From: Escherichia coli
Lineage (GTDB): Bacteria > Pseudomonadota > Gammaproteobacteria > Enterobacterales > Enterobacteriaceae
Strand: one strand, 5' to 3'
Length of the DNA: 64,000 bases
Assembly: GCF_013315695.1 (NCBI RefSeq)
Contig: NZ_CP054353.1
The notes beneath the pieces were generated by a model. That model ran no database searches. It was given only the letters and a program-made list of their open reading frames with translations, and had not been told where the DNA came from. Shown one piece after another: positions 13,745-58,430 of the stretch. How positions within the stretch are numbered: position 1 is the stretch's first letter; each line of letters begins with the position of its first letter. The position numbers and the translations under genes were made by a program.

Positions 13745-13889
13745 ATACAGCGAACGCCATTGGTTTAGTTGGATATTTACTGTGCCGGACAAAAACGGTT
13801 TGCGGGGAAATCTTAGTTAAGTAGAATAACTGCGGGTGCTTGAGGCTATCTGTCTCAGGCATGAACACCAAAAGGCAGATAGAGAAAAG

Positions 13890-13953
13890 CCCCAGTTAAC
13901 ATTACGCGTCCTGCAAGACGCTTAACATTAATCTGAGGCCATATCTATGCGAC
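13890..13953 (-). ncRNA. Putative Sok-like antisense RNA of the hok locus (extent approximate)
   Basis: Reverse-strand promoter TTGACC, 18 nt, TAATCT (-35 at 13984-13989, -10 at 13960-13965) pointing across the mok-like start; 3' end not defined. Confidence 0.3.
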
Positions 13954-14006
13954 ACATAGAGATTAGCCTCTTACGGACCGAAAGGTCAAGGAGAAGCAGG
14001 CTATGA
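13947..14006 (+). CDS. mok-like leader ORF (19 codons) translationally coupled to hok
   Basis: ATG CGA CAC ... CTA TGA; its stop overlaps the hok ATG (cTATGAag). Confidence 0.35.
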   Translation: MRHIEISLLRTERSRRSRL

Positions 14007-18084: not shown

Positions 18085-18531
18085 ATACATATCTGGATTA
18101 TCACTTGTTACGGTAAAAAGTGATTGCTTACTGTTTTTGTGAGTGGCATTGCAGCAGCCGGATAATGTCAGTGCTGGCTGACGGTGTGCTGGTGGCGGGT
18201 GTGGTGGTTGTTGCTTTCCCGTTGCTGAAAAAGAAAACGCCAGACTGTTAGCCGGGTATCAGTTAGCGGGAGAAATTTTTAAATACTTCACAATTCAGGC
18301 GGTTGACTGTTGTCTGGTTTGCGGGGAGTTTGTTAAAAGAAACTGGCATGGTGAATCCCCCTGTGCGGAGGGGCAATCAGCGAGTAGGTATATGGGATAA
18401 TCGCGGATTCAGGTGCTGGTACTGAATTCACCGGGAGGCACCCGGCACCATGCAATGGCACATAGCGCCACTCTCCAGCCCCTCTCCGGAGGGGCTGTTT
18501 ATATTGATTTTGTCAGATGTGAGTAAACTCC

Positions 18532-19127: not shown

Positions 19128-21089
19128 ATGGCATTTAAACACTATGATGTTGTCAGGGCGGCATCGCCGTCAGACCTTGCGAAACGACTGACACAAAAAC
19201 TGAAGGAGGGGTGGCAGCCATTTGGCAGTCCGGTGGCCATCACGCCTTATACCCTGATGCAGGCCATTGCGGCGGAAGGTGATGTCACCACACCTGTGGT
19301 GGTGAAGCCGTCGGATGGAGAAGGCGCAGTTATCAGCAACACCAGCAACCCGGAGTATTACTTTGTTGTTGCCCTGGCCGGGCAGTCAAACGGTATGGCG
19401 TATGGTGAAGGGCTTCCGCTGCCGGAGACATATGACCGTCCGGACCCGCGTATTAAACAGCTGGCGCGTCGCAGCACTGTCACGCCGGGTGGTGCGTCCT
19501 GTAACTACAATGACATTATTCCTGCGGACCACTGCCTGCATGATGTTCAGGATTTGAGTAAGTTTTCACACCCGAAAGCCAGCGCAGCTCAGTATGGATG
19601 CGTGGGGCAGGGATTACATATCGCGAAGAAATTGTTGCCGTTTATTCCGGCGAATGCCGGTATTCTTCTGGTTCCGTGCTGCCGTGGTGGTTCTGCATTT
19701 TTGGCGGGCGATGAAGGTACCTTCAGCGAATCCACCGGCGCAAGCGAGACCTCGGCACGCTGGGGTGTAGATAAGCCACTGTACAAGGACCTGCTTACCC
19801 GTACTCAGGCCGCACTGAAGGCCAACCCTAAAAATATTCTGCTTGCAGTGGTCTGGATGCAGGGCGAGTTTGATTTGAAACAGGGTGCATACGCCACTCA
19901 GCCGGGGCTGTTTGATTCCATGGTGGAAAAATATCGTTCTGACCTGTCGGAATTCGGAGGTCAGTGTCTCGGGGGCTCTCCGTCATCAGTTCCCTGGATT
20001 TGTGGCGACACGACCTACTACTGGAAGCAGACTTATTCTTCGCAATACGATGCGGTGTATGGTGCATATAAGACGAAATCCGCAAAAAAAATCTTCTTTG
20101 TGCCGTTTATGACGGATGAAAACGGGCGAAATGTGGGTACCAACGAGCCGTCAGAAGATCCGGATGTTGCGGATATTGGGTATTACGGAGCCGGTGGTCG
20201 AACGGACGCCAAAACCTGGACGACGGCTGACCGTAAAACGCATTTTGGATCATGGGCACGTCGTGGGATTATTTCCGACCGTCTGGCAACGGCGATTCTT
20301 GTGCATGCCGGGAGAACCGCTGAATTCATTACCGGAAAACAGCCTGATACGGTGAAGCCCACCGGACCTTCCGGTGAAGGTACGGAGAGAGAGCCGGAAG
20401 GTCCGGTCAGTAACCGAACCCTGATGAGTCTGCTGGCGTCCGGCGAAGACCTGGCATCACAGGGCTGGCGCTATTATCACAAACCGGCGAGCGGAGACAA
20501 TGTTAACAAAAACATTGCTGAAGCGGTGGTCAGTGATGCGGGGGCTACGGGAGGTAAGGCCCTGCAACTGAATAAACCGGAAAACCACATCTGGTTTCTG
20601 GAGCATGATGCAGCCGGGCAGGGGGCAGAGTTGCTGAAGAAAGGAGGACGTGTGAGCGTACGGTTTAAGTTGCCGGGTTCACTGGTGCCGAATCAGTTTG
20701 CCCTGGGCATTTACTGGCAGTTGTCGTCCCTGCCGGAGGGAGTGACGCTGGCAGAGGAAGGCAACGACATGCTGATGTCCTTCTTTCTGCAGACGGATGC
20801 GACGAACCTGAACGCGATGCACCACAAGAAGCCGAATGCGAAGCTGGAAACGTTCGGGGTCTTTGATAACGGATGGCACACACTGGCTTTTGAGTTTGCC
20901 GGAAACAACAGCATTCAGGTGACGCCGGTACTGGATGAGAAACGGGGGACGCCGTTCACACTGGTGAAATCTCCGGCATCAGGGGCGGCGGACAAACTGC
21001 AACTGACAGGCATATCAAAGGCGGCGACATATACGCTGCTGATTGACAGTGTGAAGGTGGAAGTGAACAACGCGGATGCCGCGGCATGA
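19128..21089 (+). CDS. nanS: Prophage NanS-p-type sialate O-acetylesterase (N-terminal DUF1737-like plus SGNH-type esterase)
   Basis: MAFKHYDVVRAASPSDLAKRLTQKLKEGWQPFGSPVAITPYTLMQ... then ...FVVALAGQSNGMAYGEG...; 653 aa. Confidence 0.7.
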   Translation: MAFKHYDVVRAASPSDLAKRLTQKLKEGWQPFGSPVAITPYTLMQAIAAEGDVTTPVVVKPSDGEGAVISNTSNPEYYFVVALAGQSNGMAYGEGLPLPETYDRPDPRIKQLARRSTVTPGGASCNYNDIIPADHCLHDVQDLSKFSHPKASAAQYGCVGQGLHIAKKLLPFIPANAGILLVPCCRGGSAFLAGDEGTFSESTGASETSARWGVDKPLYKDLLTRTQAALKANPKNILLAVVWMQGEFDLKQGAYATQPGLFDSMVEKYRSDLSEFGGQCLGGSPSSVPWICGDTTYYWKQTYSSQYDAVYGAYKTKSAKKIFFVPFMTDENGRNVGTNEPSEDPDVADIGYYGAGGRTDAKTWTTADRKTHFGSWARRGIISDRLATAILVHAGRTAEFITGKQPDTVKPTGPSGEGTEREPEGPVSNRTLMSLLASGEDLASQGWRYYHKPASGDNVNKNIAEAVVSDAGATGGKALQLNKPENHIWFLEHDAAGQGAELLKKGGRVSVRFKLPGSLVPNQFALGIYWQLSSLPEGVTLAEEGNDMLMSFFLQTDATNLNAMHHKKPNAKLETFGVFDNGWHTLAFEFAGNNSIQVTPVLDEKRGTPFTLVKSPASGAADKLQLTGISKAATYTLLIDSVKVEVNNADAAA

Positions 21090-21240
21090 TAAAAAAAGGC
21101 CGCCAGCAATGAAGGAAAGGGATGAACTGTGTCCACTACATGAATGCTGGCGGCTGGTAAAACGACCACGATGACACCGAAGTTTGCGATATTTTTCTAC
21201 AAAAATAAGTAAATCATGTCAACTATCACGGTGAGAAACC

Positions 21241-21423
21241 ATGACATTTCTGAACCAGTTAATGCTGTACTTCTGTACGGCAGTCTGTGTTATGTATCTT
21301 CTTTCGGGTGGGTACAGGGCAGTGCGCGATTTCTGGCGCAGGCAGATTGATAAAAGGGCCGCTGAGAGAATCAGCGCCAGTCAGTCAGCCGGAAGCAAAC
21401 CCGAAGATCCGCTCATTCCGTAG
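21241..21423 (+). CDS. Small single-TM protein, 60 aa
   Basis: MTFLNQLMLYFCTAVCVMYLLSGGYRAVRDFWRR...; weak RBS. Confidence 0.3.
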   Translation: MTFLNQLMLYFCTAVCVMYLLSGGYRAVRDFWRRQIDKRAAERISASQSAGSKPEDPLIP

Positions 21424-21460
21424 TCACTTTCTTGACAACACCTTTCAACGAGAAAATCCC

Positions 21461-21706
21461 ATGTCAGAAATCACATCCCTGGTCACTGCTGAGGCAGTGA
21501 AGGAAGTCCTGCGCTCTGAAGAAGTCCTGAGCGCACTGAAACAGAAACTCCGCCAGAACCTTGAGTCGCGTCTTGATGCAGAAGTGGATGCCATTCTGGA
21601 TGAGCTGCTGGGCGTACCAGCGGTTCCGGAGCCGGAAGGTATCGCGGGTGACGGGAGTGCTTCAGATGGCGGTGAACCCACACCTGACAGCGACATGATG
21701 ATGTAA
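21461..21706 (+). CDS. Small acidic protein, 81 aa
   Basis: [50 protein letters not shown]...; inside a longer TTG-started ORF. Confidence 0.35.
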
Positions 21707-21782
21707 GCCTGCGCAAGGGACCATCGGTGTGTGCCGGTGGTCTTTATATTGTTGTGAGCTTCCGGATAACGGGAGACGGGGT

Positions 21783-21998
21783 ATGTACCAGATGGAAAAA
21801 ATCACAACAGGTGTGTCATACACCACGTCAGCGGTGGGAACGGGCTACTGGTTCCTGCAGTTGCTGGACAGGGTTTCCCCGTCTCAGTGGGCGGCAATAG
21901 GCGTGCTGGGGAGTCTGCTGTTTGGGCTGCTGACATATCTGACTAACCTGTATTTCAAAATCAGAGAGGACCGGCGTAAGGCGGCGCGGGGAGAGTAA
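21783..21998 (+). CDS. S: Class II holin, S21-like pinholin, dual-start motif
   Basis: [71 protein letters not shown]; Met1 and Met4 starts. Confidence 0.85.
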
Positions 21999-22002
21999 AG
22001 TG

Positions 22003-22893
22003 ATGAATAAAAAATATGAACTGGTTGTTAAGGGGATAAATAATTACGGGGATAAGGTTACTGTTACTGTGAAGCCGGAAGGTGACGGGCAAGCGTCGCT
22101 GTTGTTGCCAGATGTGGCGATTAGTCTTGACCGTACTGAAGGTGCCACGCTGGAGTTTTACGAAGCTGAGGCGAAAAAGCAGGCGAAGCAGTTTTTCATG
22201 GATGTTGCTGCCGGGTTATGTGAATGGAACGAACCGTTGCCGGAAAAGCGCCCCGTAATTTTAGAGGCGCAGGATGTGTTGATAACCTACAAAGGAAAGC
22301 TACCGGGAAGAATTACTTGTTCTCTGAAGATGCCGCCGTCAACACTGCGGTCAGAAAAAGATGATGTTGAATCACGTATTGAAAAACTGGAGAGCTACGT
22401 CGTTGAGCTGAATAAGAAATGGTCGATATTGGTGCCTTCTGGCGATGAAAAGCAGTTTGCTGCGTTTGACGATTATTGTCGGAAAGTGATGAGCAGAAAT
22501 CTCGCAGAGTGTTTCAGTATTCATAATGATAATTTCAGTGAGCTGGAATGGGAGTGTAACCGGCCATCCTTTGTTGTATCCGGTGATGCTGGGAAAATAA
22601 CCATCTCAGAAAATGGGAAAGTAACACCTCCATCGCACCAGCACAGTGAGGAGCTCATTGAATTTGCCATTGATTACCTGAAGAACAATAAAAAGCAGGG
22701 GCTGATGAAGCGCGTTGGCCGTTGCATGGGATATCTTCAGGTAGCCGCTGAGATTGAAGCGCTGGCCAGTGGTGCTGATAAGGATGCAATTGTGCGGGAG
22801 GCTCTTCTTCGTGATTTTAATACTCCACCCTTTAAAAAAGTGCCGGCTTACTGGCTTCATCCGGGGCTGACTTATCTTAAAGTGCGTATTTAG
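22003..22893 (+). CDS. Unknown cytoplasmic protein, 297 aa, embedded between holin and endolysin
   Basis: ATG 5 nt after the holin stop with GGGGAGAG RBS inside the holin 3' end; no TM segments; no family recognised. Confidence 0.7.
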   Translation: MNKKYELVVKGINNYGDKVTVTVKPEGDGQASLLLPDVAISLDRTEGATLEFYEAEAKKQAKQFFMDVAAGLCEWNEPLPEKRPVILEAQDVLITYKGKLPGRITCSLKMPPSTLRSEKDDVESRIEKLESYVVELNKKWSILVPSGDEKQFAAFDDYCRKVMSRNLAECFSIHNDNFSELEWECNRPSFVVSGDAGKITISENGKVTPPSHQHSEELIEFAIDYLKNNKKQGLMKRVGRCMGYLQVAAEIEALASGADKDAIVREALLRDFNTPPFKKVPAYWLHPGLTYLKVRI

Positions 22894-22929
22894 TGGGCCA
22901 GGGACAGCGGCTGAATATTTAATATATCC

Positions 22930-23463
22930 ATGAACACCAAAATCAAATACGGCCTGTCGGCTGCCGTTCTGGCGCTGATTGCCGCTGGTGCGCCTGCGCC
23001 TGACATTCTCGACCAGTTTCTGGATGAAAAGGAAGGCAACCACACCACAGCATACCGTGATGGTGCAGGTATCTGGACCATCTGCCGTGGTGCCATCATG
23101 GTGGATGGCAAACCTGTCGTTCCGGGCATGAAGTTGTCGAAGGAAAAATGCGACCAGGTTAACGCCATTGAGCGTGATAAAGCGCTGGCGTGGGTGGAGA
23201 AAAACATCAGAGTGCCGCTGACCGAACCCCAGAAAGCGGGGATCGCGTCATTCTGTCCGTACAACATTGGTCCCGGTAAGTGTTTCCCGTCGACGTTTTA
23301 TAAACGAATTAATGCAGGTGATCGCAGGGGAGCGTGTGAGGCGATTCGCTGGTGGATTAAGGACGGTGGCAGAGACTGCCGTATCCGCTCAAACAACTGT
23401 TATGGTCAGGTATCCCGTCGTGACCAGGAGAGCGCGCTGGCGTGCTGGGGAATCGACAGATAA
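22930..23463 (+). CDS. R: SAR (signal-anchor-release) endolysin, R21-like lysozyme
   Basis: MNTKIKYGLSAAVLALIAAGAPAPDILDQFLDEKEGNHTTAYRDGAGIWTICRG... Confidence 0.85.
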   Translation: MNTKIKYGLSAAVLALIAAGAPAPDILDQFLDEKEGNHTTAYRDGAGIWTICRGAIMVDGKPVVPGMKLSKEKCDQVNAIERDKALAWVEKNIRVPLTEPQKAGIASFCPYNIGPGKCFPSTFYKRINAGDRRGACEAIRWWIKDGGRDCRIRSNNCYGQVSRRDQESALACWGIDR

Positions 23464-23553
23464 GCAGAATATTTTGCTGAAAAATAAGGCATGGCCACGC
23501 GGGCGGATAACACGAAATCCTGCGAACTGGCGAAACGTAAGTGAATAAAAGTA

Positions 23554-23592
23554 AAAACCCCGTTTGTTGGCACCAAGCGGGGTTTTGTGTTT
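23554..23592 (+). terminator. Intrinsic terminator downstream of the endolysin
   Basis: aaaaccccg / cggggtttt stem around a 15-nt loop, followed by ttttgtgttt. Confidence 0.5.
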
Positions 23593-23619
23593 CTGACCTT
23601 GAGTAAGGCAAGGGAGAAC

Positions 23620-23802
23620 ATGGCGAAGTATAAACGAATTCTGTTGAGGTTGACTATGAAAAACGGCCTTGAACTGAAAGCGCCTGTAACTGATGACATC
23701 AGCAGAGCACTGGCTTTTGCCATTAAGTGGGTGGCGGTCGGTGTTGCTGTGTCCCCGATGCTGTATGGGCTGGCAAAACTGGTCATTGCGTTGAAATCAT
23801 GA
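23620..23802 (+). CDS. Small protein with C-terminal TM helix, 60 aa
   Basis: [72 protein letters not shown]. Confidence 0.4.
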
Positions 23803-23816
23803 AGGGAGGATTAAGC

Positions 23817-23948
23817 ATGCCAGACAAACTCATAACGCTGGCGAAGATCCTCTGTGTAATTGTCGGCATTTCATTTTCACTAATGCTGGTTGCTCTTTTT
23901 CTTTCCATGGCCTGGATGATGTTGTCTTCGTCGGGGTTGCTGGGGTGA
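23817..23948 (+). CDS. Small hydrophobic protein, 43 aa
   Basis: RBS GGGAGG 7 nt before [46 protein letters not shown]. Confidence 0.4.
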
Positions 23949-23959
23949 ACATAAACCGA

Positions 23960-24418
23960 ATGCTTTCCGCGTTTATCGTTATTCTGCTGGTGGCCTGTGG
24001 TGCGCTGTGGATGGCAACAGACCATTACCGTGATAACGCGATTACCTACAAAGCGCAGCGCGATAACAAAGCCAGTGAACTGAAGCTGGCGAACGCAACC
24101 ATTACTGATATGCAGGTGCGCCAGCGCGATGTTGCTGCGCTCGATGCAAAATACTCGAGGGAATTAGCCGATGCGAGAGCTGAAAATGAAACTCTTCGCG
24201 CTGACGTTGCCGCTGGTCGTAAGCGCCTGCGGATCAACGCCACCTGTCCAGGCTCCGTGCGTGAAGCCCCCACCACCTCCGGCGTGGATAATGCAACCGG
24301 CCCCCAACTGGCAGACACCGTTACACGGGATTATTTCACCCTCAGAGAGCGGCTGATGACGATGCACAAGCAACTGGAAGGGGCACAGGACTATATCCGC
24401 ACTCAGTGCCTGAAATAA
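23960..24418 (+). CDS. Rz: i-spanin Rz
   Basis: [65 protein letters not shown]..., closely lambda-Rz-like. Confidence 0.85.
24171..24356 (+). CDS. Rz1: o-spanin Rz1, lipoprotein embedded in Rz in the +1 frame
   Basis: [51 protein letters not shown]; lipobox VSAC, Pro-rich. Confidence 0.8.
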
Positions 24419-24728
24419 GTTTTGTTGATGCGCCGTATCGTCGCTATATTCCCTCATTAACAGAGACCGCAGCCCGACAGGGAGACTCCTCTGCGCGAGT
24501 GTGCGGGGATAATTAAAAACGATGCTCACCGGGTTTTTACCGCGTTAATGATTCGCGGGTTTATCCCGGTGCGATGGTGGAAGAAACAGGAAGCTGTATT
24601 ACAGAAAGTGCTACTACTGTATCCCGATGCGATGTATGTAATGTGAGTCAGATAATGGCACAGGATGTGGTGATGTGGCAGTCTGGAACACAGGATATAT
24701 TGTCAGAATAAGACCCGTAGGAATAAAA

Positions 24729-25055
24729 ATGAAAAGACGCCTTTTACTACTTTTTCTGTTATCTGTCCTGGCAGTGGGATGCTCGCAGCAAAAAGCTGAT
24801 GAGCCCCGGCAATTAGTGACGGTGTATCCACGATATCCGGAATATGCTGCAGCAAATTATATCAAGGGGCTGGTTGAGGTTAAGTTCGATATTGGTGCTG
24901 ATGGGACTGTGACACGGATCGTTTTTCTCCGCTCAGAGCCTCATAATTTGTTTCGTGATGAAGTGGTGAAGGCCATGGCGAAATGGCGATTTGAAAAGAA
25001 TCGCCCCTGTCAGGGAGTGAAGAGACAATTTATCTTTACGCCGTCACGTCCCTGA
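24729..25055 (+). CDS. Lipoprotein with TonB C-terminal-like domain, 108 aa
   Basis: MKRRLLLLFLLSVLAVGCSQ (lipobox) then VTVYPRYPEYAAANYIKGLVEVKFDIGADGTVTRIVFLRSEPHNLFRDEVVKAMAKWRFE; RBS AGGA. Confidence 0.65.
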   Translation: MKRRLLLLFLLSVLAVGCSQQKADEPRQLVTVYPRYPEYAAANYIKGLVEVKFDIGADGTVTRIVFLRSEPHNLFRDEVVKAMAKWRFEKNRPCQGVKRQFIFTPSRP

Positions 25056-25177
25056 TGCTTCCAGGTAGAGAGGGGCTGGACGCAGGAGAAAAATGAAAGA
25101 GCCAGCGGTTATATTTTTGTCATGGCTGACGAGGAATGATGGAAGAAGGCGTTGTATGCCACACAACGCCTCACTGT

Positions 25178-25670
25178 TCATTTCTTCTTTTTCTCTGGTG
25201 GAACCCGATGAATAAGAGTTGCACTGGTTTCCGATGAGATGGCGATATACTCGGGCAAAGTATGCTGGCAGTTTTCCAACTGGTCAAAAATACCTGCTCT
25301 CGTCTGTTGCAATGCCTGCAGCATGCGGCGGCAATGCGCCTTGCTTTTACTAACCATCTTTCCTTCCTCTATCAGTCGCTGCGTGAACTCATCATGTAAT
25401 ACCAGGTAAATGCGGATGTTATCGGTTTTGGCTACGCAGCATAGTACAAAACGGACAGGTGCATCCCGGGACGGGGGAGGCGTCACATGTCCCTGTGATG
25501 GTTGTTCCGGGTAATGCACTGTGTGGGGCATAAAAATGTCCGATAATTTTACTTTCTACCGCAGTTAGTTGATTCGTTGGTCCTGGTAGCACATTGGGCG
25601 AGGATTTAAATGCCAGGCAACTGAAGGATGATGTTGCAAGGGAGATAGCGAGAATATTTCTGATTTTCAT
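25178..25670 (-). other. Reverse-strand coding region in two overlapping frames (25419-25670 with signal-peptide-like start MKIRNILAISLATSSFSCLA; 25178-25531); possible frameshifted gene or two overlapping genes
   Basis: Two ORFs of 84 and 117 aa overlap by 113 nt; function unknown. Confidence 0.35.
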
Positions 25671-25817
25671 TTGATGATGCCTCTGTGTGAAATGACGGTA
25701 AACGACGCACTTGTGCCGGCACATAATAGCAAGCACCATAATAGATCAGATTCGATTCTTGCTGTAAGTGATAATCATTCTCGTTTTCGGGTCCTTTCCG
25801 TCGATCCAACAGGTTAC

Positions 25818-25829
25818 GGGGCGGCGACC
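25818..25829. other. cosN cohesive-end site, lambda-type
   Basis: GGGCGGCGACCT followed by CGCGGGTTTTCGCTATTTATGAAAATTTTCCGG, matching the lambda left end as I recall it for about 45 nt. Confidence 0.8.
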
Positions 25830-25867
25830 TCGCGGGTTTTCGCTATTTATGAAAATTTTCCGGGAAC

Positions 25868-25966
25868 CATGTCCGGTTTCTCTTCAAGTTAACTATATGA
25901 AAAATAAAAAAAGAGGTCTTCTGTGAACCGGACATGCACAAAAAATAGACATGTAAGCCGGACATG
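25868..25966. repeat. Three copies of CCGGACATG (one inverted) in the cosB position, putative small-terminase binding sites
   Basis: catgtccgg 25868-25876 (inverted), ccggacatg 25928-25936 and 25958-25966, between cosN and Nu1. Confidence 0.45.
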
Positions 25967-26013
25967 ACCGGTTTTGTTGTGATTGTGAAGTGAGAGTTTT
26001 TGCGAGGTGAGGA

Positions 26014-57801: not shown

Positions 57802-58430
57802 TATGTATTCCCTTGTGATTATAATCTTCATGAATATATCAATAAGTGCTGTTATCCAAAAAAAGCACATTTGGATACTATTCTATGAAGTTCATTTTAT
57901 TTTAAAGATTACATGTAACAAATGTATTTAAAAGATTTCAAAATGTTTCTAATCTATTTAATATAATTCATAGTTATGAATTCTGAATATAAATATTCAC
58001 GAATATTATGGATATATATCAATATGTTATGAGTTGATCGAAAAGATAGGGAGTATCAATGATTGTTGCGCTAAACGGCTGGTGTGATCTCGCGCACATT
58101 AATGAAGGCATAAAAAAAAGCCGGCATCATGCCGGCCCAAAAAAATATAAACAAGACGATAAAAGGCTAATAACGGAGGCATGATGACACAGAAAAATAA
58201 AAAGGTATAATTGTAATCAGTACCAATATATTGATTGAATGAATTAATAAAGCCGAAATCAAAGATAAATAACATCGTTCAAATCGATTTTTCCTGTATT
58301 CACCGCCGTTGCGCAAAATTTATCTATTTGTTCAAAAAATGATTGAGTCTTGACTGGCTCATCCAATGTGGAAAAATGTGACTTTTATCACATAATAGTT
58401 CTAAGTCTGAATTTTCCGGGTTATCTCAAA

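Follow-up and report, generated by a model that had tools for sequence, protein, structure and literature searches.

Phage lysis of Gram-negative hosts is usually described in terms of a holin, an endolysin and spanins, and in classical cassettes the endolysin gene R abuts the spanin gene Rz. In a prophage carried by a 64,000-nucleotide stretch of Escherichia coli DNA (contig NZ_CP054353.1; the whole stretch is referred to here as the window), R and Rz are separated by a gap of 497 bp, and the question raised by this locus is what the gap encodes and what its products do. An initial annotation of the DNA placed in the gap a terminator-like hairpin, following an endolysin of the signal-anchor-release (SAR) type, as well as two small membrane open reading frames (ORFs) with good ribosome-binding sites ahead of Rz/Rz1, and pointed to the contrast with classical cassettes. 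Each of these elements was found as described: the hairpin (23554-23586) has a stem of 13 bp and a folding energy of -18.9 kcal/mol, the 60-aa ORF1 has a C-terminal transmembrane (TM) segment, the 43-aa ORF2 is hydrophobic, and the two are preceded by the Shine-Dalgarno (SD) sequences GGGAG and GGGAGG, respectively; in the Qin prophage of E. coli K-12, R and Rz overlap by 4 nt with no insert. In this study, we report that both ORFs are conserved genes and that the hairpin accompanies the ORF1 family throughout its range. We give an even chance to the reading that ORF1 and ORF2 would be accessory inner-membrane lysis proteins which modulate lysis, and our confidence in the anatomy is much higher than that.

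Two small membrane-protein genes between R and Rz

ORF1 (23620-23802, + strand) encodes a predicted C-tail-anchored membrane protein. Its first start is the ATG at 23620, with the SD GGGAG at 23612-23616, and its only TM segment lies at the C-terminal end (residues 38-56, KD19 1.88), with a net charge of +5 in the N-terminal flank. An AlphaFold2 model placed a long helix over residues 25-59 with moderate confidence. The full-length protein matched PHROG 1115 (phrog_1115, E=2.6e-42), and phrog_4493 and phrog_3246 were also matched; for PHROG 1115 the function is listed as unknown. Profile searching of 1.84 billion representative proteins recovered a small ORF1 family, the shared features of which are the motif (YKRILxRLT)MKNGLExDAPVTxEIS, a hydrophobic C-terminal segment and an MYG motif, and the soluble N-terminal motif was kept in homologues with only 34-55% identity. 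Pairwise dN/dS values were 0.14-0.25, and the variable columns were distributed over the three codon positions as 19/15/41, a pattern of substitution by which ORF1 is clearly under purifying selection.

ORF2 ends at 23948 (+ strand) and starts either at the ATG at 23817 (43 aa; SD GGGAGG at 23804-23809) or at the ATG at 23799 (49 aa), which overlaps the ORF1 stop as ATGA. It encodes a single-TM peptide with one very hydrophobic segment (KD19 2.89) and matched PHROG 4906 (E=4e-23), a group found in E. coli only and also of unknown function in PHROGs. Pairwise dN/dS was 0.3-0.55 and the variable columns were 16/13/21 by codon position, so judged ORF2 is moderately constrained by purifying selection. 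A tblastn search returned ~276 phage records, mostly of Shiga toxin (Stx)-converting phages, in which ORF2 is open over its full length and often unannotated, and it lies directly 5' of Rz in the six Stx-type loci that were fetched. The C-terminus, SSSGLLG, is not a charged tail, and a weak PHROG holin match was obtained (E=0.08). Proposals that ORF2 is a duplication of the Rz TM segment or a paralogue of ORF1 were rejected, as BLASTP gave no alignment of ORF2 with either the N-terminal TM segment of Rz or ORF1.

The conservation check suggested in the initial annotation came out in favour of the two ORFs. The 497-bp interval was present, at a coverage of at least 80%, in 989 of 5426 complete E. 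coli genomes (~18%), and both ORFs were open in all relatives examined. Because of the PHROG matches, the dN/dS values, the third-position bias and the distant homologues, we regard ORF1 and ORF2 as real genes. Minus-strand ORFs over the interval were considered and rejected: their long stop-free stretches cross the module junctions, and codon bias and distant homology fit the + strand frames. No match to ORF1 or ORF2 was found in Pfam, NCBIfam, PADLOC or PDB, and a literature search by accession and locus tag returned no paper on the module, which is ordinary in frequency and uncharacterised.

ORF1 contains a second in-frame start, the ATG at 23656, preceded by an internal SD (GAGG, 23646-23649). 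Initiation there would give a putative short form of 48 aa beginning MKNGLE, to which the long form adds a basic N-terminal extension of 12 residues (YKRILLRLT). In 17/17 diverse variants, AGG, which is rarely used for Arg in E. coli, is the codon 9 nt ahead of the internal ATG, and Ala, Pro, Ile, Leu and Thr codons close by differ freely at their third positions; in two loci (L091 and L093) the residues of the extension differ and the nucleotides are still GGAGG. The fixed AGG, and the GGAGG kept despite differing residues, argue that the internal GAGG-N6-ATG-AAA is conserved as a ribosome-binding site. The extension is probably coding as well, since it shows synonymous variation and has an upstream start (ATG, GTG or TTG) with its own SD in all variants. 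ORF1 appears, from this pattern of conservation, to be made from two starts as two isoforms, and such a predicted dual-start layout is that of holin/antiholin genes.

Homology to holins was not detected for ORF1, either among Pfam families or among the matches of the 1.84-billion-protein profile search. BLASTP against the holin of its own prophage aligned the ORF1 TM segment with the second TM domain (TMD2) at E=0.004, over 16 aa only, and the two segments resemble each other as W[AV]A[IV]GV..S..L[FY]GL. Derivation of the ORF1 TM segment from pinholin TMD2 was rejected, as the profile search and the distant homologues gave it no support. A protein encoded on a 554-bp ENA contig (P0119) has holin residues 1-36 fused to the final 23 of ORF1, with the shared Trp as the exact point of joining, and is either a recombinant or an assembly chimera. 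Neither ORF1 nor ORF2 has the lipobox or the long soluble domain of a spanin.

ORF2 is predicted to be translationally coupled to the genes on both sides. Besides the overlap with ORF1, the Rz gene (inner-membrane spanin or i-spanin; 23945-24418, + strand; Pfam Phage_lysis E=1.8e-47) may start at the GTG at 23945, which overlaps the ORF2 stop as GTGA, or at the ATG at 23960, which lacks an SD; the GTG is favoured because the 'NR' ahead of the TM domain is conserved in relatives. The outer-membrane spanin (o-spanin) gene Rz1 is embedded in Rz (24171-24356, + strand; Pfam Rz1 E=4e-20). Many small TM ORFs 5' of spanin genes end in ...RWW*, and their last codons, TGGTGGTGA, double as the SD of the i-spanin; examples are found in L104 (961-1176) and L108 (1960-2100), and as the ends of family genes in L110-L113 and L127.

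These overlaps invite the explanation that ORF2, and ORF1 where it abuts Rz, are neutral translated spacers that deliver ribosomes to Rz, with the hairpin marking a recombination boundary. The window Rz has no SD and overlaps ORF2, the RWW* ends of relatives' family genes serve as spanin SD sequences, ORF2 is only moderately constrained, and small TM ORFs in the gap have been shuffled, truncated and fused, all of which speaks for this reading. Set against it are the low dN/dS of ORF1 and the retention of its N-terminal motif in distant homologues, the conservation of the internal SD and of both starts, the open ORF2 of the 276 phage records, and the hairpin, which travels with the gene even into tail clusters where no spanin follows. 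As an account of the whole module neutral filler is very unlikely; it is plausible for ORF2 and not for ORF1, given the conservation of the latter.

Spacer, hairpin and expression

R is followed by a conserved non-coding spacer (23464-23553, + strand), of which 29 distinct variants were compared and which is also present in Stx phages and in Salmonella; counted with the hairpin and T-rich tail in which it ends, the spacer after R totals 156 nt. A 17-mer, CGGATAACACGAAATCC (23504-23520), is near-invariant from E. coli to Salmonella, with surrounding bases that vary and no conserved frame. The same 17-mer is able to form a short stem (GGAT/ATCC). An ORF of 17 codons at 23493-23546 was rejected as a gene, its frame not being conserved in the Sp10 prophage of E. 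coli O157 Sakai or in Salmonella. At 23538-23548, TAAGTGAATAA provides stops in all three frames, and this junction is common to the window-type cassettes, to those carrying the antirepressor gene ant and to those with a GH108 endolysin. In a Salmonella locus (L088, 2723-2812; CP030203), a very hydrophobic ORF of 29 codons (MICFVAAFMLACDGRSGWGWFLLVGLIVM) lies 5' of the conserved spacer and hairpin, and its start overlaps the endolysin stop as ATGA.

The hairpin with its T-rich tail occupies 23554-23595 (+ strand). The stem (23554-23566/23574-23586) contains 6 G-C pairs and encloses a 7-nt loop (23567-23573), the tail is GTGTTTCTG, and the fold has z=-2.9. A G+C-rich stem-loop followed by a U-rich tract, here UUUUGUGUUUCU, is the form of an intrinsic terminator, and termination is predicted. 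Every ORF1-family locus examined (~37 distinct loci, all contexts) had a hairpin built as AAAACCCC...GGGGTTTT and followed by T-rich sequence, 62-89 nt upstream of the internal ATG; energies ranged from -12 to -31 kcal/mol. The inner stem is freely variable, and the outer one is conserved, with occasional differences. In a closely related set, changes on both sides occurred at 2 of the 13 pairs and 95.8% of cells were paired; in 20 diverse hairpins, and in spite of problems with register, RNAalifold predicted 8 pairs, of which 5 carried compensatory changes. On this distribution, the hairpin is to be regarded as a 5' element of the ORF1 module and not as part of the endolysin gene. A small predicted leader stem-loop, CCTTG-AGTAAGG-CAAGG (23597-23613, + strand), follows it; the 3' arm overlaps the first SD, and the structure is retained in the Salmonella and GH108-type variants.

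Known small RNAs (sRNAs) did not account for the hairpin. Rfam gave no match in the interval to AgvB/AsxR, Pas, STnc100 or EcOnc, and the idea that the hairpin terminates one of the known prophage sRNAs was rejected, as gathering and permissive thresholds alike yielded nothing but a chance rimP-leader hit (E=0.08). Identity with PasA/PasC was rejected as those sRNAs map upstream of the holin, and identity with the Hfq-bound EcOnc11/12, suggested by spacing, was rejected as EcOnc11 in Sakai Sp10 lies ~75 bp after Rz and the Sp10 post-R hairpin is different. That Sp10 Hfq-CRAC peak (L007 ~7820-7870; record 1946819-1946867, minus strand) is on the strand opposite the late genes, and the peaks EcOnc10, EcOnc11 and EcOnc12 represent near-identical signal in Sp12, Sp10 and Sp9. 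It looks like an undescribed multi-copy Hfq-bound RNA beside the lysis cassette; the window sequence after Rz differs.

The hairpin also folds on the minus strand (-11 to -25 kcal/mol), and its flanks are rich in A on the 5' side and in T on the 3' side, so that it looks bidirectional. It could then end an antisense transcript, as in a type I toxin-antitoxin-like system in which a minus-strand promoter within the first ORF1 codons would produce an RNA of ~75 nt, complementary to the leader and SD, that silences a membrane-toxic peptide. The size and hydrophobicity of ORF1 and ORF2 suit such a toxin, and a promoter-like minus-strand TAGTCA-18-TATACT is present at 23656-23627; in 22/25 family variants this position is occupied by T[AGT]G[TA]CA-18-TATA[ACG]T, some having a perfect TATAAT, and the TAT (17/17) and AAA (16/17) codons there show no synonymous variation. 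These bases also serve as codons and fall within the internal initiation region, so the promoter signal is inseparable from these other constraints, and promoter-like sites numbered 5, with 5.7 expected in shuffled sequence. Furthermore, the toxin gene itself would have no promoter, the hairpin is more stable on the + strand in 20/24 variants because of U.G pairs, and no type I toxin or antitoxin RNA was matched in Pfam, NCBIfam or Rfam for the interval. Hfq-CRAC data from O157 Sakai showed no sRNA at the spacer between R and ant, a weak argument as the Sp10 hairpin differs and sites <100 bp from a coding sequence were filtered out. This antisense arrangement is improbable, and the type I toxin suggestion of the initial annotation is weakly supported, with neither homology nor a sense promoter behind it.

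A consensus scan found no + strand promoter-like site in 21000-26000, although an atypical promoter could escape such a scan, and the sequence 5' of the hairpin is not conserved between contexts. As no + strand promoter was found, expression from the Q-antiterminated late transcript would be the simplest explanation. Under the lysis-modulator reading, Q-modified RNA polymerase would read through the hairpin in lytic growth, and S, R and Rz would be accompanied by both peptides. Stray expression in the lysogen would be blocked by the hairpin and the three-frame stop, which would shield the module and the genes after it from transcription without antitermination and from ribosomes arriving from upstream; insulation of a similar kind would suit ant-type cargo. 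ORF1 would be anchored in the inner membrane by its C-terminal TM segment, with the N-terminus in the cytoplasm, and its two isoforms would modulate when or how lysis is triggered, generically, by analogy with holin/antiholin pairs and P2 LysA. Coupling through ORF2 would additionally set the translation of Rz.

Gene neighbourhoods and function

The gap between R and Rz was compared across ~130 loci. The window type (R, spacer, hairpin, ORF1, ORF2, Rz) was seen in the window and in 80 IMG/VR loci, which are not phylogenetically independent. In Stx phages and in Sakai Sp10, the common spacer is followed by a different hairpin with a similar T-rich tail, ant, an ORF2 homologue (ECs_1966, the start of which overlaps the ant stop) and Rz. 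Other E. coli prophages carry in the gap further small ORFs with C-terminal TM segments, reordered or truncated copies and ORF2::ORF1 fusions. In a Salmonella prophage, a different holin and a SAR lysozyme precede the common spacer, a covarying hairpin and ORF1, followed by Rz with no ORF2; E. coli TUM9812 has two holins, a GH108 endolysin, the hairpin, ORF1, ORF2 and a lipoprotein gene; and phiSTEC1575-Stx2k has an M15 endolysin, an ORF1-family member and a lipoprotein. Since Stx phages have ant with ORF2, and Salmonella has ORF1 alone, the two ORFs are independent parts. The ORF1-ORF2 segment is 98-99% identical between loci with flanks of only 80-93% identity. The module was also present, at ~96% identity, in the genomes of the induced phages PhiR5/PhiR12, recorded with K-12 or E. 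coli C as hosts.

Exact-protein look-ups and two scans of IMG/VR served to locate the family genes, and the neighbouring genes were typed with Pfam and PHROGs. Among 24 diverse IMG/VR loci, the family gene was directly between endolysin and spanin in 14. The endolysins of these 14 were SAR Phage_lysozyme, GH19, GH19-like with PG_binding_1, GH108 with PG_binding_3 and a 140-aa 'NNPGNIR' type, to which the M15 enzyme of phiSTEC1575-Stx2k adds a sixth class, and the spanins were Rz (PF03245), DUF2514, a LysC-like o-spanin or small lipoproteins. Most of the cassettes bearing a family member have one or two ordinary holins upstream. Near-identical family proteins occur with unrelated endolysins and spanins, from which a generic rather than partner-specific action is argued. 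Judged by these neighbourhoods, the ORF1 family is a recurrent, putatively accessory component of Gram-negative phage lysis cassettes, whatever the type of holin, endolysin or spanin.

Some of these cassettes have no Rz-like i-spanin. L097 (3001-3565), L116 and L125 are of one type, in which endolysin and family member are followed by two lipoproteins and no other holin is visible, and L105 (1980-2337) and L106 (1573-2095) have holins, endolysin, a family member and a 60-aa lipoprotein; the lipoboxes in these spans are LLAGC, LLTGC and LLVGC. No Rz is annotated in the complete phiSTEC1575-Stx2k genome either. Such cassettes may represent a non-canonical set for envelope disruption.

The remaining 10 of the 24 members lie in tail, baseplate or tail-fibre clusters, and this raises the possibility that ORF1 and/or ORF2 are morons, that is, cargo benefiting the lysogen, for instance by superinfection exclusion as with HK97 gp15, inserted at permissive late-operon junctions of which R|Rz, next to the Bor slot, is one. 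Some members follow tail-fibre genes, and others lie between gpV and gpW or between the gene for the tail assembly chaperone (TAC) and that for the tape measure; tail-cluster and late-operon slots of this kind are known for morons (HK97 gp15, lambda lom, bor). The gap behaves as a swap site, occupied from phage to phage by ant, by ORF1 or by small TM ORFs of other kinds, the ORF1-ORF2 segment is mosaic as described above, and the family is found mostly in prophages. The layout speaks for the opposite. A moron has its own sigma-70 promoter upstream and a terminator downstream; here the scan found no sense sigma-70 promoter between R and ORF1 or elsewhere on the + strand of 21000-26000, the sequence before the hairpin is not conserved from one context to another, and the terminator is 5' of the genes with none after them, ORF2 overlapping Rz with no terminator between. 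PADLOC matched no defence family, and all close relatives, as well as the 14 diverse members, are flanked by lysis genes. Cargo of this kind is unlikely as an explanation of the module, and the suggestion in the initial annotation of an exclusion factor is possible for ORF1 in view of the tail-cluster members.

Of the functions proposed initially, lysis modulation is the one favoured by the position between endolysin and spanin, the dual start, the stop/start overlaps and the missing sense promoter. Several observations weigh against it. With 10/24 members in classic moron slots, the family is not exclusively lysis-linked, and it is rare in isolated phages (9-14 INPHARED records, compared with the ~276 phage records for ORF2). 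Holins typically carry a charged tail at the C-terminus, and ORF1 does not, ending in LVIALKS and having its charged region at the N-terminus; its resemblance to TMD2 was not confirmed by the profile search. A frequent hairpin variant has a C.A mismatch and only -12 kcal/mol, so selection on the stem is not absolute, and a strong terminator inside P2-like late operons, which are without antitermination, is hard to square with simple read-through. The constraint on ORF2 is only moderate, and the non-independence of the IMG/VR loci also counts here.

A broader proposal, which we put forward tentatively and consider doubtful, is that the ORF1 family with its obligatory 5' hairpin would form an unrecognised class of lysis gene, a portable, dual-start, C-tail-anchored fourth component that times lysis independently of its partners, and that in the Rz-less cassettes it may be the inner-membrane partner of the small outer-membrane lipoproteins or the only holin. 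If true, the Rz-less role would be a new arrangement for envelope disruption. An effect of the peptides on lysis timing, if true, would affect Shiga-toxin release and phage burst, and the movement of a hairpin together with a promoterless gene from operon to operon may be an example of the way in which phages insulate toxic cargo.

The surrounding prophage and comparison with known systems

The prophage is an E. coli lambdoid prophage of Stx-phage-like type without stx, with the gene order Q, tRNAs, STnc100, IraM, nanS-p, holin, YdfR and R onward. The stretch from R to Rz is 99.2% identical to that of strain AVS0790, the 497-bp gap being 100% identical, and the PGAP annotation of AVS0790 lists both ORF1 and ORF2 as 'hypothetical protein'. 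The holin (21783-21998, + strand) is an S21-type class II holin of 71 aa with an MYQM dual start, assigned from its translation; the near-identical AVS0790 gene is labelled 'class II holin family protein' by PGAP. It is followed by a 297-aa ORF (22000-22893, + strand) with an N-terminal DUF1327/YdfR domain (Pfam PF07041 E=2.7e-40) and an extension of ~200 aa beyond it, and as this ORF separates the holin from the endolysin, S|R is a second interrupted junction. The AVS0790 counterpart is labelled by PGAP as an incomplete YdfR pseudogene. The SAR-type endolysin R (22930-23463, + strand; Pfam Phage_lysozyme E=3e-24) has an Ala/Gly-rich, weakly hydrophobic N-terminus (KD19 1.74) and an E-x8-D-x5-T motif.

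Downstream of Rz, a TonB-family protein with a lipoprotein-like signal (MKRRLLLLFLLSVLAVGCSQQ) is encoded at 24729-25055, in the slot occupied by bor in lambda. A second strong terminator-like hairpin (13 pairs) is present just 5' of the holin, at 21716-21745, the position at which PasA/PasC sRNAs have been reported in prophages of enteropathogenic and enterohaemorrhagic E. coli, upstream of the holin (bioRxiv 10.64898/2026.05.13.724894). STnc100, a PasD relative, is at 18317-18506. Rfam also matched a sok antitoxin RNA of the hok/sok type I system (13834-14005) and DicF (6262-6313, minus strand), both within the prophage, and rseX (58113-58203, minus strand), presumably in the flanking chromosome.

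No known family matches the module, and by sequence comparison none of the closest functional analogues appears homologous to it, each differing in topology or location. Like the dual-start holin genes of lambda (S107/S105) and phage 21 (S71/S68), ORF1 would encode a small inner-membrane protein in a lysis cassette from two in-frame starts, the longer product having more positive charge at the N-terminus; further points of likeness are a stem-loop over the first ribosome-binding site and, probably, expression from a late transcript. ORF1 differs in lacking homology to these holins, in having one TM segment only, at the C-terminus, and no charged C-terminal tail, in an extension of 12 residues instead of 2-3, and in lying after the endolysin, usually alongside one or two ordinary holins. 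P2 LysA is a non-essential membrane protein, thought to be a timing modulator of poorly defined function, the gene for which lies between endolysin K and the spanins LysB/LysC. ORF1 occupies the same slot and is also a membrane protein; LysA is larger and polytopic, and no similarity was detected.

Morons of the HK97 gp15 type encode small inner-membrane superinfection-exclusion proteins in tail clusters. ORF1 resembles gp15 as a small single-pass inner-membrane protein of a late operon, and some family members occupy the same slot between TAC and tape-measure; such morons are expressed in the lysogen, have a promoter of their own and are followed by a 3' terminator, whereas ORF1 has a 5' terminator, no promoter that was found and no similarity to gp15. 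With the type I toxins Hok, Ldr, Ibs, TisB, ShoB and ZorO, the two ORFs share the size of hydrophobic peptides of <=60 aa and a possible overlapping antisense RNA; they have neither homology to these nor a sense promoter, and are embedded in and coupled to a phage late operon.

A similar operon setting is found in phage P1, where the small membrane protein gene for the pinholin LydD lies in the same operon as the SAR endolysin lyz and LydD cooperates with other holins (PMC9025707). ORF1 and ORF2 lack typical holin features, and, judged by organism name, none of the records listed by tblastn with either was from P1. In a survey of Stx-phage genomes, the cassette is given only as pinholin, SAR endolysin and Rz/Rz1 (PMC8136144).

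Two additional small membrane lysis proteins have been described elsewhere: Mu releasin gp25 (DUF2730), which has its TM segment at the N-terminus (N-out) and an acidic C-terminal domain in the cytoplasm (PMC9239132), and LambdaSo Lcc6, a 65-aa TM protein needed for pinholin/SAR lysis (bioRxiv 10.1101/2024.01.23.576932). ORF1 has the opposite layout to their N-terminal TM segment and cytoplasmic C-terminal domain, with a basic N-terminal flank, and gives no DUF2730 match in Pfam; the Lcc6 gene, unlike ORF1, is far from the lysis genes, and the ORF1 family, unlike releasin and Lcc6, is also found beside non-SAR endolysins (M15, GH19, GH108). The likeness is that all would be small bitopic inner-membrane proteins beyond holin, endolysin and spanin, releasin and Lcc6 acting in SAR-endolysin systems, and these two proteins show that such additional components can be essential for lysis.

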